64,000 bases of DNA from a virus (IMGVR_UViG_2851976983_000001:36474-100473), one strand, 5' to 3'. Positions 24,575 through 29,689 are shown, counted from the first letter of the stretch. The notes: generated by a model not told the origin, from the sequence alone. Program-made: numbers and translations.

Positions 24575-25342
24575 ATGGACGATTTATCGGTATACGCGAG
24601 ATCATTGGATAAGGCTAAATACTATGTTTACTGTCTCTATGATACAGAAGACAAGATGAAAAGACCGTTTTACATAGGAAAAGGCAAATCGACTCGTTGT
24701 CTCGATCACATCAAGTATCCCGATGACTCTCCCAAATCCATGCGGATCAAAGAACTTTTGGCTAATAAAAAATTAGGCATAGATATACTTCGTCATGGTA
24801 TGGATGAAACCACAGCCAAACTTGTTGAGGCGACATGCATCGACCTTATGGGGGTCGGAGAGCTTACGAATAAGGTTCGAGGAAGTGGTTCCATGATGGG
24901 CAGAATATCACTGGACGCCTACCATCACTTAGTGCTGCAAGAGGAAACTGAAATTGCTCCTGAGCACGCCGGTCTTGCCTTCCTGCTAAACAGCACCTAC
25001 AAGTCAGGAATGTCCGCTCTGGCATTATATGAAGCTACGCGTGGCGTATGGGCAAAGGTTCCAAGAGACGAGAATCTCAAATATGCCTACGCTACATATG
25101 GTGGGCTGATAATGGAAGTTTATCAGATTGAATGCTGGGTCAAAGCCGGTTCTCAGCAGTACTTTACAAGGGATATAGCTCTTGGCCCCGACACAAAACG
25201 TTATGAATTTGTTGGCAGAATAGCCGATGAGCATATTAGAAAACTGTATGTAGGCAAATTAATCAAGAAGCCACCAAGCTACGGTAGCCCTTTTGTGAAG
25301 GTTGGGGTGGTTAGGACTGAACATAGTGTTAGCGCGGCATAA
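24575..25342 (+). CDS. GIY-YIG nuclease-domain protein (homing-endonuclease-like)
   Basis: N-terminal YYVYCLYD...PFYIGKGKSTRCLDH resembles the GIY-(x10-13)-YIG...R core; plus strand, own terminator. Confidence 0.45.
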   Translation: MDDLSVYARSLDKAKYYVYCLYDTEDKMKRPFYIGKGKSTRCLDHIKYPDDSPKSMRIKELLANKKLGIDILRHGMDETTAKLVEATCIDLMGVGELTNKVRGSGSMMGRISLDAYHHLVLQEETEIAPEHAGLAFLLNSTYKSGMSALALYEATRGVWAKVPRDENLKYAYATYGGLIMEVYQIECWVKAGSQQYFTRDIALGPDTKRYEFVGRIADEHIRKLYVGKLIKKPPSYGSPFVKVGVVRTEHSVSAA

Positions 25343-25359
25343 AGCTGACACAGTAGTTA

Positions 25360-25396
25360 TGCATTGGCGCAACGTACGCGCCAATGCATGATTTTT
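25360..25396 (+). terminator. rho-independent terminator of the GIY-YIG gene
   Basis: TGCATTGGCGC-AACGTAC-GCGCCAATGCA followed by TGATTTTT. Confidence 0.6.
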
Positions 25397-25754
25397 AACC
25401 TTTTTTCATCAACTCTCGTTTGATTTCATCGGTACGCATCGTGACATCGGCAGCTGTGATCGCCTCGTTAAGTTTCACGATGTCCTCGATTTCCTGCGGT
25501 GACTTCTCTGCCAGATGGAAAATGGCTGCGCGAATCACGTCTGAACGGGTGAACTTCTCGAAGCGAGGGATGAACTTCATCATCTCCAGCAGTTCGAAGT
25601 ATTCGTCCTCCAGTGACATTGTGCGGCTTTTAATTTTCTCTTTGCCACGAGTCGGGCGTCCCTGTGGTCTGACTGGTTGGCGCAAAGGAGTTGTGTTCTT
25701 AGCCGGTGCATCAGGCTCTTTGCGCTTTGCTAGGTCACCCATTTTCATGGACAT
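25395..25754 (-). CDS. small partition/centromere-binding protein candidate (ParG/ParB-like)
   Basis: 119 aa, basic N-terminus; translationally coupled to the ParA gene (ATGA overlap). Confidence 0.4.
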   Translation of the reverse strand: MSMKMGDLAKRKEPDAPAKNTTPLRQPVRPQGRPTRGKEKIKSRTMSLEDEYFELLEMMKFIPRFEKFTRSDVIRAAIFHLAEKSPQEIEDIVKLNEAITAADVTMRTDEIKRELMKKG

Positions 25755-26422
25755 TATTCTTCTTCCTCCAGACTCAACAGATAATCTACAAATTCTTCAA
25801 ACTCGGCTTCCGCCTTTTTGTCGCGCTCGCTACCGGTCATTTCAAAGATAGAACGACCAGACTCTTCCGCATCATCATAGACGTTGCGGTTATATAGATT
25901 GACTGGCGCAGACTCGATGCCAAACGTCTCAACAATCTCTTTAGCCGCCAGAATGCGAGACACTTGTGATGGCAAAGCCGGGCACTGGTTCATGACCGCG
26001 CGGACCTTCACTTTATCGTTTACATTACGAACATTGTCGATAATAGGATCGATGTCACGCAGAGATTTCAAATCACGACGCTTAGGACGAAGCGGGATAA
26101 TGATAACGTCGGCCATCAGCATCGCTTGTCGCTGAATTTCGGAGTCAAAGCCACCAGCATCTACCACTACATACTCAGCTCTACCCTGAAGCGATTTTAG
26201 GTGCTTAATGATGTCATCCTGAACGTATGCAAAAGGAATCAGCTCAAGGTCTTCGTTCTGTCGACGGTCTTCACACCAGCTCGTTGTCGTGCGCTGAATA
26301 TCTATATCGGTGATATAAACCTTCTTCTTCTTTTTGACTTTCAGGCAAACGGCAATTTGCTGGGCAACGGTGGATTTGCCAGGCCCGCCCTTTGTGCCGC
26401 CAACCACAAAGATCTTGGTCAT
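25754..26422 (-). CDS. parA: ParA-family partition ATPase
   Basis: Deviant Walker A VGGTKGGPGKST; 222 aa, typical of small type Ib ParA. Confidence 0.8.
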   Translation of the reverse strand: MTKIFVVGGTKGGPGKSTVAQQIAVCLKVKKKKKVYITDIDIQRTTTSWCEDRRQNEDLELIPFAYVQDDIIKHLKSLQGRAEYVVVDAGGFDSEIQRQAMLMADVIIIPLRPKRRDLKSLRDIDPIIDNVRNVNDKVKVRAVMNQCPALPSQVSRILAAKEIVETFGIESAPVNLYNRNVYDDAEESGRSIFEMTGSERDKKAEAEFEEFVDYLLSLEEEE

Positions 26423-26568
26423 TGGAGAGTTCCCTTTGCGTATATAATTATCGTCTGAAACAACTTGTTTTCTTATATGTGATATAGCCTAAATGCCTAC
26501 GGCTGTGGTGTAAAGGTTAAATGGTAGGTGCTGCCTTAGAATTTTTAGGCGAGAATCAATGGCTGTTA

Positions 26569-26594
26569 ACAAAAAAGGCGACCAAAGTCGCCTG
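26569..26594 (-). terminator. rho-independent terminator after the 26599..27351 gene
   Basis: On the minus strand: GGCGAC-TTTG-GTCGCC followed by TTTTTT. Confidence 0.6.
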
Positions 26595-26598
26595 ATTT

Positions 26599-27351
26599 TT
26601 AATCTTTTAGGTATAAACCTACTGGAGTTCTTGTTTTGCGGGAGATGATAAGTACGATAAATTTCTGAACGTTAACTTGCACTTTGTTTGGGAGCCAAGA
26701 GCTTAACTCTGCATCAAGCAACAATCCTCTGTTCCACGGCAAAAATCCGGTTTCTTTCCCCATCCCGTACTCGCCTAACACATCCTCGAACGTTTCTGTT
26801 TTGGCATTGTATATACGCACATCGCCGGTTCGCATGAGAGGCCCTGCCCAGATCTTAGCACCAGGAATGGTTTGTGTATCGTCGCAGACTAAATGCTCAT
26901 ACCAATGAAGAAGAAAGAGATAGGTACGGTGACACAATCCTCGCTGACGACGCTCTCTGACAGTTTCGACACCAGCTACCTGGTAACATTCGATCTCATT
27001 ACCGTCTTCAACAAAACTATATTCACGCAGAGCTATCCTACCAGCGATCGTATTTTTGTTTTCGTCCAGAAGCCCGGACTGGAGCACCTCTTTGATAATC
27101 TCTTCTTCAGGGGCATCTTCATCCGCTCGATCTAAGATGAATTCGCTCAGGTCGCCTTGGTCGCGCGCACCTACACGTTCCATAGAGACATACAGGCAAA
27201 TGTCATCTTCTGGTTCAATGATTTCAATTTCTGAGATTTTATAGAGGGAGGCTTCATTGATAAGAAAGCCAAAACGAACAACACGAGTCTCCCCTTTATG
27301 AGGAAACTCGCTTAGATCTTTTGAATATGCGCTATCTAGTGTAGGAGCCAT
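26599..27351 (-). CDS. hypothetical protein
   Basis: 250-aa ORF overlapping the upstream 127-aa gene. Confidence 0.5.
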   Translation of the reverse strand: MAPTLDSAYSKDLSEFPHKGETRVVRFGFLINEASLYKISEIEIIEPEDDICLYVSMERVGARDQGDLSEFILDRADEDAPEEEIIKEVLQSGLLDENKNTIAGRIALREYSFVEDGNEIECYQVAGVETVRERRQRGLCHRTYLFLLHWYEHLVCDDTQTIPGAKIWAGPLMRTGDVRIYNAKTETFEDVLGEYGMGKETGFLPWNRGLLLDAELSSWLPNKVQVNVQKFIVLIISRKTRTPVGLYLKD

Positions 27352-27719
27352 TTTGTAGCAGAATCATCAGCCTTAACCGTGCTGACAATGCTACCATGAT
27401 TGCGTAAGAAGCGGCGAATAGAATGTTCAATAACCTCCGAAAAAGCCTCGATAAAACGAGACAGCTCAGGGTACTGTTTAGCTGGCTTGACTACAAAACG
27501 AACACGACCATTCAGGTAAATTGCTTCAGCTAATGGCTTCACGCTTGCACCAGCGCGCTCAACATCGTCTTTGAAGGTAACGATGAAGCGTGAGTCTTCC
27601 GGTTCAATAGCGTCATTATTGAGCTTACGTACTTCAAGCTTGTGCTGATTCAGCACATGAGTCTCGATAATACTCGTGCAATCGCGAATAGTTTGTATAG
27701 AACGTTTCTCGTTCAGCAT
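27336..27719 (-). CDS. hypothetical protein
   Basis: 127-aa ORF; first gene of a two-gene unit downstream of the lysis cassette. Confidence 0.5.
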   Translation of the reverse strand: MLNEKRSIQTIRDCTSIIETHVLNQHKLEVRKLNNDAIEPEDSRFIVTFKDDVERAGASVKPLAEAIYLNGRVRFVVKPAKQYPELSRFIEAFSEVIEHSIRRFLRNHGSIVSTVKADDSATKWLLH

Positions 27720-27943
27720 GTGTCCACCTTAGCCGTTAACACAAGTGTCATTGCGGCACCCCTCTCGGGGTTGAAGGCTACGAGGATGCGTAGCCTGTAT
27801 GTGCCCACTTACGTGGATGCCTAATAAATCTACATCAAATTACTAAATGATTCAACATGAGCTTGAGTGAACAGGCGTGTATATGAGTGAAGATGCCATC
27901 TTTAGGATAAAAGGTAAACTGAGACCACTCATCAATCATCGCC

Positions 27944-28171
27944 TCAGTTCAGGTGCCCCCACTCACACAGCCTTTCACCTATCGTATTGTGGATAAGCAA
28001 CTGTCGCTCCGTTTCCTCAGTCATAAAATCCTCTCTACTCACATAGATAGGATTTGCAGCATCGCAGAATAGCACGCCTGGAGCCTGCGTCTTAATCACG
28101 CACCCATTTATCAAGCAGCTCGCGATGAACACCAGAGGCATCTTTTTGCCGCACTTCATTAACCGTTTCAT
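27944..28171 (-). CDS. outer-membrane spanin candidate (Rz1-like lipoprotein)
   Basis: MKRLMKCGKKMPLVFIASCLINGC with lipobox, encoded in an alternative frame overlapping the 3' part of the Rz-like gene; start uncertain. Confidence 0.5.
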   Translation of the reverse strand: MKRLMKCGKKMPLVFIASCLINGCVIKTQAPGVLFCDAANPIYVSREDFMTEETERQLLIHNTIGERLCEWGHLN

Positions 28172-28343
28172 TTTTGACATCCACTGTGCTTTGAAGTCGT
28201 TTTCTGTCTTCCTGTTTTGCCTTCTCTTCCATTGCTCGTCGCGCCGCATTTCCGCCCATCGTGTAAGCGCCGACAAGAACGAAAAGAACGGCAGCCAGCG
28301 TAATCAAAGCAACTTTTAGCTTTGTCATCAGGCTGCCTAGCAT
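28092..28343 (-). CDS. inner-membrane spanin candidate (Rz-like)
   Basis: N-terminal TM ALITLAAVLFVLVGAY followed by a charged region. Confidence 0.55.
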   Translation of the reverse strand: MLGSLMTKLKVALITLAAVLFVLVGAYTMGGNAARRAMEEKAKQEDRKRLQSTVDVKNETVNEVRQKDASGVHRELLDKWVRD

Positions 28344-28344
28344 A

Positions 28345-29064
28345 TTAGACCATCCCTTTCTGGTGTCTTCTTACCTGCGACCAGGCGATAAATCCAGCCA
28401 CAACAATAGTGGCAATACCGAAGATGATGCGTACTGTATCCCCGCTAGAGATATGACCTTGTGCTTTATCCATAGCAGCGGAAACCTGCGGCATAACATC
28501 TGCCAGCTGCGCCAGACCAATACCTGCTGTAACAGTTGCGCCAGCGGTTTCTTTAGTTACAGGAACAGCCTTCACGGTTTTCACCGGCTTAACGACGCCA
28601 GCTCGACGCAGACCTTCCTCAATAACTTCTGCCGCATACCAGGTGTTCAGCGTTTTTAGTGGACCTCGACCATTCTCGTGGCGAATGATTGCCTCAACCA
28701 AAGGTCGAAGGATGTCGTAATCATGCAGATCGATGATCATGTCTGCGGTTACACCAACGGCTTTAGACACCTCATTAATGTAGGCGTCAGTGTTGTTTTC
28801 ATTCGGCGGTGCCCAACGTTCAATAACTTCACGAATGGTATCGATACTTGAGCCGTCTTTTGCGCGACGTTTGTCGTGGTAGGTAATTAGAGTCACCGCC
28901 AGCGCACGAATCCCCCAAACAGGGTCTTTAAACGTGCAAAAGCGCGGTTCGTCTGGATTCGCAACCAGACCTTGCCACGGTGATCCTTTATCAAGATTAC
29001 CGGGGTTATTATTACGAATGCCTCTCGGAGTCTTCATCCTTGATCTCCTGTTATTGCAGTCCAT
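28345..29064 (-). CDS. lysis-cassette protein, possible endolysin/peptidoglycan-associated with C-terminal TM anchor
   Basis: Sits between holin-like and spanin genes; N-terminal GIRNNNPGNL motif; C-terminal hydrophobic helix IIFGIATIVVAGFIAWSQV; enzymatic class not established. Confidence 0.35.
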   Translation of the reverse strand: MDCNNRRSRMKTPRGIRNNNPGNLDKGSPWQGLVANPDEPRFCTFKDPVWGIRALAVTLITYHDKRRAKDGSSIDTIREVIERWAPPNENNTDAYINEVSKAVGVTADMIIDLHDYDILRPLVEAIIRHENGRGPLKTLNTWYAAEVIEEGLRRAGVVKPVKTVKAVPVTKETAGATVTAGIGLAQLADVMPQVSAAMDKAQGHISSGDTVRIIFGIATIVVAGFIAWSQVRRHQKGMV

Positions 29065-29386
29065 TTTTTACGCCATACGCGGCTAACCCCAAAAGCAGTG
29101 CAGTAATAATGAACGACGTTATTTTAGAAACAATGCCGCCAAAGAACCCACTGGAGATGGAATCTAACCGGTTAAGGAGCTTGTCCAGGTTGGAGTGTTG
29201 AATACTATGTTGCGCTGGGGTCATATCACCAAAGTAGGTTTTCAGCTGATCATTGACCTCCTGGCCAATTTCTTCACGTAGCTCTTTGCCTAATTTGCCA
29301 ACAACCTCCCGAGCAACGATCGCGGCAATACGCTCAACTTGCTCTGTTGTAACGCCCGCCATCTCGTTCGACATGTTTTCCTCCAT
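29051..29386 (-). CDS. holin-like small membrane protein
   Basis: 111 aa with C-terminal TM ITSFIITALLLGLAAYGV; first gene of the lysis cassette. Confidence 0.45.
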   Translation of the reverse strand: MEENMSNEMAGVTTEQVERIAAIVAREVVGKLGKELREEIGQEVNDQLKTYFGDMTPAQHSIQHSNLDKLLNRLDSISSGFFGGIVSKITSFIITALLLGLAAYGVKNGLQ

Positions 29387-29452
29387 GAAAAGTCAAATCG
29401 GGATGGCGGATTTATATCACATTTCACCCTTTTGTTGTAGGTGTGTACTTAC

Positions 29453-29689
29453 CTACCATTCAGCATTGCAACGGACTGATGAGAAAGCACCTACTCCTAC
29501 CCATCGCCAGTTATAGATGCTACCCGCTTTGTATAAGGTATAGTCGTTCACTTTTTTAACAGCATATATGGGTATGACTGTCTCCTGTCCACCAATGATA
29601 GCCTCACCATAACATATAGGTGTCGGCAATTTCTGGCAGCCAGTAAGAGAGAGAACAACAGCTATTGTTAGAAATAATCTTTTCATCAT
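29453..29689 (-). CDS. small lipoprotein
   Basis: MMKRLFLTIAVVLSLTGC signal peptide with LTGC lipobox; 78 aa. Confidence 0.6.
   Translation of the reverse strand: MMKRLFLTIAVVLSLTGCQKLPTPICYGEAIIGGQETVIPIYAVKKVNDYTLYKAGSIYNWRWVGVGAFSSVRCNAEW

Follow-up and report, generated by a model that had tools for sequence, protein, structure and literature searches.

A mobile cassette combining a GNAT-fold protein, a novel partner and a structured leader RNA in a variable slot of SSU5/pHCM2-like phage-plasmids

Two overlapping genes, referred to here as A and B, lie between the lysis genes and parA in a 64,000-nt stretch of viral DNA (IMGVR_UViG_2851976983_000001:36474-100473; hereafter the window). 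The window is part of an SSU5/pHCM2-like phage-plasmid: its parA side is 92-99% identical to the phages Cyrano, CMS-2020a, PhiR41_1 and SSU5, and many E. coli plasmids of ~110 kb contain the exact region at 99.7-100% identity. Clinical E. coli, Shigella, Salmonella and Klebsiella commonly carry phage-plasmids of this type. We show that a promoter, a structured leader, A, the GNAT (GCN5-related N-acetyltransferase)-fold protein B and a terminator constitute a self-contained mobile cassette, located in a polymorphic accessory slot. A first-pass annotation of this DNA had described the two overlapping open reading frames (ORFs), their position between an Rz1-like gene and parA, and a clean rho-independent terminator at the end of the unit, all of which we recovered as described (Table 1). 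The promoter and the leader upstream of A (27720..27855) had been missed, and the unit is accordingly longer than its two genes and terminator.

Both genes are real, since each is a full-length match to a PHROG family of unknown function (E = 7.9e-46 for A, E = 2.8e-98 for B) and each has dozens of conserved homologues across Enterobacterales. They overlap by 16 nt (27336..27351), which suggests translational coupling. The terminator is located 5 nt past the B stop codon. Its hairpin is followed by a T-run on both strands (stem and minus-strand T-run, 26566..26593), so that it should act bidirectionally and also isolate parA. A scan returned 5 terminator-like sites against 5.0 in shuffles, with no excess overall; the support for this terminator thus comes from its position directly after B rather than from the scan count. 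At the other end of the unit, the sigma-70-type promoter follows the pattern TTGnnn-17-TA[GA]ATT, found at a constant distance from the leader in 20 of the 22 distinct promoter variants from divergent loci. A generic consensus scan did not call this promoter (scores 8/12), and no obvious operator palindrome is present at the promoter in the window. Promoter, leader, overlapping genes and terminator are all contained within a 1.43-kb segment, in support of the autonomy of the unit.

The most conserved part of the cassette is not coding. When divergent loci were aligned (the window, SSU5, PhiR41_1, Dickeya, Erwinia, K. aerogenes and Citrobacter), the ~130 non-coding nt upstream of A proved better conserved than the genes. 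This region holds a leader RNA that is predicted to form four hairpins, P1 to P4, and that ends 4 nt before an invariant Shine-Dalgarno (SD) sequence. The covariance model R1, built from 22 leaders, has exactly one match in each of 52 enterobacterial A+B loci (40-99 bits) and a single match in the window (27717..27806, minus strand, 85 bits, E = 7e-22). Loci with A alone, PhiR12, Acinetobacter and Cyrano gave no match. In the model-based alignment, both members of a pair are changed in 43 cells (16.1 in shuffles), and the covariation score is 0.165 against 0.070 in shuffles (reached by 0 of 500), with slid controls at or below 0.081. This support comes from P3 and from the inner part of P4. 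P1 is the 5'-terminal hairpin of nearly all leaders, with at least 10 different stem sequences. P2 shows no compensatory changes and was rejected as a covariation-supported helix; it counts here as a predicted hairpin only, with an invariant 3' arm (CUCGUAGCC) and a 5' arm that degenerates among SSU5-type leaders. Folding energies are low, with a mean z of -2.4 relative to dinucleotide shuffles and 25 of 39 leaders below -2.

A longer form of the leader, in which P4 is duplicated, occurs in Dickeya (L005 7467..7623), in Erwinia (L008) and in one viral contig (L152). Its first P4 copy carries a degenerate SD sequence, and a strong hairpin followed by a U-run separates the two copies and looks like an internal attenuator. 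Conserved, covarying hairpins that abut the ribosome-binding site of the first gene, with a terminator-like hairpin in one variant, are features shared with autoregulatory leaders and riboswitch-type 5' untranslated regions; the A-B leader differs in that it matches no Rfam family, that its SD sequence is modelled as open rather than occluded and that P2 lacks covariation. Rfam 15 (4227 families) gave no match to 27717..27860 at E <= 1, and over 25000..29500 the sole match was a sub-threshold PhrS located elsewhere. The conserved leader is a candidate new regulatory RNA. An upstream ORF starting at an AUG inside P4 was discarded, this AUG not being conserved. A scan of genome contigs with the 14-base pattern GCATNCTCGTAGCCT proved too unspecific: its 120 matches, in phylogenetically unrelated genomes, look like chance. 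A metagenome scan with a longer pattern gave 52 matches, of which 23 were also due to chance, for example in a repeated coding sequence without A or B downstream.

Comparison with related elements by blastn (Cyrano, SSU5 and PhiR41_1) showed that the cassette fills a slot with sharp edges: similarity is 86-99% up to 26529-26532 and again from 27957-27985, and between these limits the leader alone can be aligned (74-76%). SSU5, PhiR41_1 and p7.2.1 carry A-B alleles with 33-41% amino-acid identity to those of the window, while parA is 86-99% identical at the nucleotide level; Klebsiella-type alleles are closer, at 80-88% amino-acid identity. Other relatives hold different content between flanks that are 94-99% identical. 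In Cyrano and in E. coli LF82 and S56, and in 143 plasmids overall, the slot is occupied by a TacA1/DUF1778 antitoxin and a GNAT toxin in the opposite orientation; the Cyrano antitoxin matches PF08681 (E = 8e-26), and the Cyrano KacT-type toxin, of 173 aa, matches Acetyltransf_1 and Acetyltransf_7. A Cronobacter plasmid has in this place a 402-aa protein annotated as HEPN-domain (L263 1205..2413), in which no domain was found in Pfam or PADLOC, and pHCM2 has an unrelated 183-aa ORF (L261 1719..2270) that matched no Pfam or PADLOC model. The slot is empty in the K. pneumoniae plasmid pRHBSTW-00636_4.

Mosaicism also extends into the cassette. In ~15 further complete E. coli genomes only the promoter and leader of the window are found (27712..27963, 95-99% identical), with other gene alleles downstream, and the breakpoint between the shared leader and the other alleles is the A start codon. 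Such mosaic cassettes include that of the E. coli ST131 plasmid p7.2.1 (L256 1671..2935) and two others (L207 and L253), whose leader and promoter are nearly identical to those of the window and whose A is ~32% identical. The slot, with its varied occupants, is a compact natural site of cassette exchange, useful for finding further conflict genes. On its lysis side, the last ~6 codons of Rz1 fall inside the variable segment, since similarity to Cyrano resumes only at 27964.

The distribution of the two genes is patchy and mobile, extending over phage-plasmids, prophages and three unrelated chromosomal sites. The window allele was found in 60 of 5426 complete E. coli genomes, always on a plasmid, and a B-family gene is present in ~260 enterobacterial and 79 Acinetobacter plasmids of PLSDB. 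Three different chromosomal sites, in Dickeya, Erwinia and K. aerogenes, each hold the A-B pair and its leader on their own, flanked by housekeeping genes; in a Citrobacter prophage and the lambdoid PhiR12 phages the pair adjoins an integrase. The order A then B is kept down to ~20% identity, and the window, SSU5, Dickeya, Erwinia and K. aerogenes all have the 16-nt overlap. In all of the more than 60 loci inspected, the gene immediately upstream of B belongs to the A family, and this extends to members from Acinetobacter and from metagenomes that are only 20-23% identical (hmmsearch E = 3e-14 to 4e-7); no B without A was seen in this limited sample. The reverse does not hold: A occurs alone, without B or leader, in P1-like D6 (L003 3989..4339), in RCS47 and in ~36 viral contigs (L166-L201). 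Four of these contigs (L166, L167, L187 and L192) carry a second, divergently oriented A paralogue ~320 nt away. In five PhiR12 phages, A is intact beside the integrase and B is frameshifted into pieces of 66 and 196 aa (PhiR12_1, L004 360..1479). PhiR12 has no enterobacterial leader, and a terminator-like hairpin precedes A instead.

These data bear on one explanation of the locus, namely that A-B serves its neighbours, as a regulator or timer of lysis or as an accessory protein for partition or the centromere. All that the pair has in common with the lysis genes and parA is position and orientation, the three being transcribed in the same direction. Against such a role, relatives lack A-B or carry replacements, the pair has its own promoter and terminator and is found in chromosomes and lambdoid prophages with no parA or matching lysis genes nearby, and neither A nor B resembles known lysis or partition proteins; an accessory function is effectively excluded. 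The first-pass annotation had named, as evidence against an independent unit, homology to regulators of lysis or to partition accessory proteins kept in every relative; no such similarity was found, and the slot is variable. Its proposal of an autonomous, moron-type two-gene unit is instead supported by the replacements in the slot and by the chromosomal copies free of phage; it was incomplete rather than wrong, having overlooked the GNAT fold of B and the divergent alleles in the SSU5 slot.

The same annotation had reported no recognisable motifs, which holds at the sequence level for both proteins (no match in Pfam, NCBIfam, PADLOC or PDB) but not at the level of the fold, where B resembles GNATs. 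B was modelled with a mixed alpha/beta GNAT fold, in the order beta1-alpha1-alpha2-beta2-4-alpha3-beta5-alpha4-beta6-7, with an additional acidic N-terminal region and, between beta6 and beta7, a long insert. The nearest folds are HAT1, Naa40 (NatD), RimJ and RimL, with only 5-14% identity to B and no relation at the sequence level, and most of the top fold matches are protein acetyltransferases. The protein is strongly acidic (isoelectric point ~4.8-4.9, net charge -15), residues 21-100 alone having a net charge of -14. At the place of the pyrophosphate-binding motif A loop (Q/R-x-x-G-x-G/A, at the start of alpha3), the sequence reads R135-Q-R-G138-L-C140 in the window, Q-S-A-G-L-A in PhiR12 and H-R-K-G-I-M or Q-Q-Q-G-L-S in other close homologues; its Gly is kept in at least 90% of close homologues and is not invariant across the wide family. 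Seven residues are invariant family-wide, down to ~16-20% identity (P3, Q124, Y144, D157, Q160, W168 and W206), and the N-terminus M-[AS]-P-x-[LIVF] is kept throughout the family, even where B does not overlap A. This conservation pattern looks like that of an active enzyme whose N-terminus is functionally important.

An exhaustive search of 1.84 billion representatives by profile returned only 46 relatives, and these include four phage polyvalent proteins of 1430-1486 aa (P0098, P0111, P0116 and P0118), each with 2-3 B-like modules. The B core (profile positions ~95-184) matches these modules at E = 2e-8 to 1e-3 library-wide, and at E = 2e-12 to 5e-17 when the B profile is searched locally against the four proteins. 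B and the modules have in common the motif G-[LI]-x4-Y-x2-L-x5-L-[VI]-[SC]-D-x2-Q-T-x2-G-x-[KR]-[IL]-W. In P0098, the segment matched by the B profile (residues 171-258) coincides with the Pfam assignment of Acetyltransf_1 (38.4 bits, cut-off 20.7); the link of B to the Pfam GNAT models is thus transitive only, through P0098. The same four proteins also hold DdrB-like ParB nuclease motifs (DGHHR) and repeated DUF6934 domains. The similarity of B to polyvalent GNAT modules is direct, at the level of profile and sequence, but the setting differs: the modules are fused into proteins of more than 1400 aa with DdrB-like ParB and DUF6934 domains, presumably delivered with the DNA, whereas B is free-standing, has an obligatory upstream partner and is served by its own sigma-70 promoter.

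The partner A is mildly basic (isoelectric point ~8.8) and was modelled as an alpha/beta protein, with a beta-sheet, a long helix and a low-confidence C-terminal tail; its N-terminal motif RSIQTIRD is invariant. Searches of Pfam, NCBIfam, PDB sequences (phmmer) and PDB profiles gave no match, PADLOC-DB v2.0.0 gave only a 12-bit, chance-level match to PDC-S39, and Foldseek against viral structures found nothing at E <= 0.001. The model spans only part of a GNAT fold. A was considered as a paralogue of the N-terminal half of B, in view of the similar order of secondary structures, but this was not supported, the hhalign probability being 0.2%.

The kinship of B suggests another explanation, in which the pair is a non-toxic, protein-modifying moron: B would acetylate a specific host or phage protein, with A as specificity or regulatory subunit, and the benefit would be lysogenic conversion, counter-defence or superinfection exclusion without self-poisoning or addiction. 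Iyer et al. (2017, PMC5512222) predicted that GNAT domains of phage polyvalent proteins act as protein modifiers at an early stage of infection, and B-like modules occur 2-3 times in such proteins, next to DdrB-like ParB domains. The nearest folds to B are protein N-terminal and histone acetyltransferases, its acidity fits basic protein substrates, and its N-terminal motif, with an invariant P3, is conserved even without the overlap with A. This explanation leaves unaccounted for, however, that B never occurs without A although A is often alone, that lone chromosomal copies exist without surrounding phage, and that a toxin-antitoxin (TA) pair and a HEPN-annotated protein occupy the same slot in relatives; in addition, searching the polyvalent proteins with the A profile gave nothing significant (best E = 0.098). 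We consider it a possible but somewhat doubtful explanation.

Detoxification appears improbable. In that case B would acetylate a toxic compound of low molecular weight (an antibiotic, something like a microcin or an analogue of an amino acid, for instance), and the leader would be a riboswitch-like sensor that, in the presence of this compound, enables translation or, in the Dickeya type, relieves termination. The leader, however, is a row of adjacent hairpins with no multi-helix junction to close it and no Rfam match, and it is missing from distant A-B loci. A detoxifying enzyme would not usually show such extreme allelic diversification of both proteins in one slot, neither the stand-alone A genes nor the need of B for A as a partner would be explained, and most of the top fold matches of B point to proteins as substrates.

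We therefore favour a conflict function and would classify A-B as a two-gene conflict module of the GNAT-based kind, in which both the partner protein and the candidate regulatory RNA are novel. This assignment to mobile conflict modules relies on the asymmetric co-occurrence of A and B, on the classical GNAT TA pair that replaces them in sister elements, on the frameshifted B beside an intact A and on the operon architecture. Specifically, A-B may be a new TA-like or defence cassette of the abortive-infection type, with a GNAT effector and a novel partner, a reading that we hold tentatively and with less than even confidence. With type II TA systems in general, A-B shares a patchy mobile distribution and the occurrence of orphan A but no orphan B, in a limited sample. 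The loss of B with retention of A in PhiR12 counts for a TA-like pair, and so do the charge complementarity of basic A and acidic B, the autonomy of the unit and the diversification of its alleles. Among the closest known systems are TacAT, KacAT and AtaRT, composed of a DUF1778 antitoxin and a GNAT toxin, in which a small gene likewise lies upstream of, and overlaps, the GNAT gene in one operon. A-B differs from them in both proteins, A not being a DUF1778 or ribbon-helix-helix (RHH) protein and B being a 250-aa acidic protein without Pfam GNAT match, for which tRNA binding is unlikely, and further in its conserved RNA leader and in the lack of an obvious operator palindrome at its promoter.

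Several observations weigh against a conflict cassette of this kind. Toxicity, neutralisation, acetyl-CoA binding and phage exclusion are activities that we infer, and the argument from equivalent occupants of the slot is guilt by location. B has no Pfam match at E <= 0.1, and hence matches no curated GNAT (Acetyltransf_*) model; NCBIfam, PDB phmmer and PDB profile searches likewise returned nothing, and PADLOC-DB v2.0.0 gave no match. In its model, ~68 residues have a predicted local distance difference test (pLDDT) score below 50, some of the most conserved residues among them. A TacT-like attack of B on aminoacyl-tRNA seems unlikely, because B exceeds known tRNA-acetylating GNAT toxins in size (250 aa, versus 173 aa for the KacT-type toxin of Cyrano) and is strongly acidic. 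A has no PF08681 match, its model is not RHH, and no RHH, helix-turn-helix or DUF1778 DNA-binding fold is recognisable in it. The neighbourhoods of the chromosomal pairs in Dickeya, Erwinia and K. aerogenes are not defence islands. Both proteins are "hypothetical" in every database, and a literature search found nothing on the slot or on the A-B family.

The leader adds two further reservations. It is not a core component of A-B, as it is missing from the Acinetobacter and PhiR12 versions. Nor is it predicted to behave as a switch that occludes the SD sequence by default: the partition function predicts the SD sequence to be more open than in dinucleotide shuffles (0.34 versus 0.18), so that control through a factor bound beside the ribosome site is more likely, judging from these predicted folds, than a closed default state. 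RNAalifold pairs the invariant 3' arm of P2 with the SD sequence, and some minimum free energy (MFE) folds pair the 5' end with the SD sequence and the AUG, but in view of the partition function simple occlusion was rejected as the default state.

If A-B is nevertheless a conflict cassette, B could act as an acyl-CoA-dependent acyltransferase on a basic protein, either from the host or from a phage entering the cell, and unrestrained B would stop growth or phage development. A would bind and restrain B, or steer it to its target. The leader might serve as an operator-like platform by the ribosome-binding site, through which the A or B products or a host factor could adjust translation. For a lysogen, the effect would be post-segregational killing that stabilises the plasmid prophage, exclusion of other phages, or both, and the allelic diversity and the stand-alone A genes, as candidate neutralisers, might reflect an arms race. 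In its boldest and more speculative form, the proposal is that of an undescribed TA or phage-defence family in which an acidic GNAT, B, is held in check by a partial-GNAT-like A, with a new cis-regulatory leader in enterobacteria, with lone A of P1-like and other phages as a counter-defence "anti-B", and with hypervariable alleles behind a common promoter and leader that record an arms race at a phage-plasmid hotspot; we regard this full picture as possible but less likely than not. An addiction or exclusion module would help to explain how large plasmid prophages persist and compete, would extend the GNAT-based conflict systems by one whose partner protein is of a new kind, and would provide a functional handle on the GNAT modules of polyvalent proteins.

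Table 1 Position of the A-B cassette, its components and the neighbouring features in the window
Feature	Position	Strand	Details
Whole variable cassette, between the conserved parA and Rz1 sides	26530..27963	.	blastn against Cyrano, SSU5 and PhiR41_1
Sigma-70-type promoter	27827..27855	-	TTGAAT 27850..27855, 17-nt spacer, TAGATT 27827..27832
Structured 5' leader RNA, ~105 nt	27717..27820	-	Covariance model, covariation, folding z-scores
Leader hairpin P1	27805..27816	-	Predicted fold
Leader hairpin P2	27776..27795	-	Predicted fold
Leader hairpin P3	27758..27771	-	Predicted fold
Leader hairpin P4	27732..27757	-	Predicted fold
Invariant SD and start sequence UAAGGUGGAnACAUG	27717..27731	-	Directly after P4
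Gene A, 127 aa	27336..27719	-	ATG start; phrog_2594
Gene B, 250 aa	26599..27351	-	ATG start; phrog_3307
Bidirectional intrinsic-terminator hairpin	26576..26593	.	7-bp stem, 5 GC, 4-nt loop: AGGCGAC-CAAA-GTCGCCT
ParA-type ATPase	25754..26422		Flank on one side, plus small partner gene
Holin, endolysin and Rz/Rz1 spanin ORFs			Flank on other side; Rz/Rz1 are phrog_1026 and phrog_1275
Endolysin (phrog_873)	28345..29064	-	Hydrophobic C-terminal segment, read from translation
119-aa gene directly after parA	25395..25754	-	phrog_5111, function unknown
255-aa ORF, LEM-3-like GIY-YIG nuclease domain	24575..25342	+	PF22945, E = 5.5e-07
Hairpin over Rz1 stop codon, then U-rich stretch	27917..27950	-	MFE fold, window only

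The surroundings of the cassette yielded several further observations (Table 1). The late lysis transcript may end, weakly, at the predicted hairpin over the Rz1 stop codon, which precedes the cassette promoter. The endolysin is of a type unusual for a lysis cassette, its best PHROG matches being internal parts of large virion proteins. On the other side, the 119-aa product of the gene that follows parA has no Pfam match and is annotated in Cyrano as a "RelE/ParE putative toxin"; the position of the gene suggests a ParA partner or centromere-binding protein instead, which makes the toxin label doubtful. Just beyond this gene, on the opposite strand, sits the GIY-YIG ORF. In pHCM2, in one K. 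pneumoniae plasmid and in one Cronobacter plasmid, its place is taken by a DUF2971 protein in the orientation of parA, and this location looks like a second polymorphic slot.

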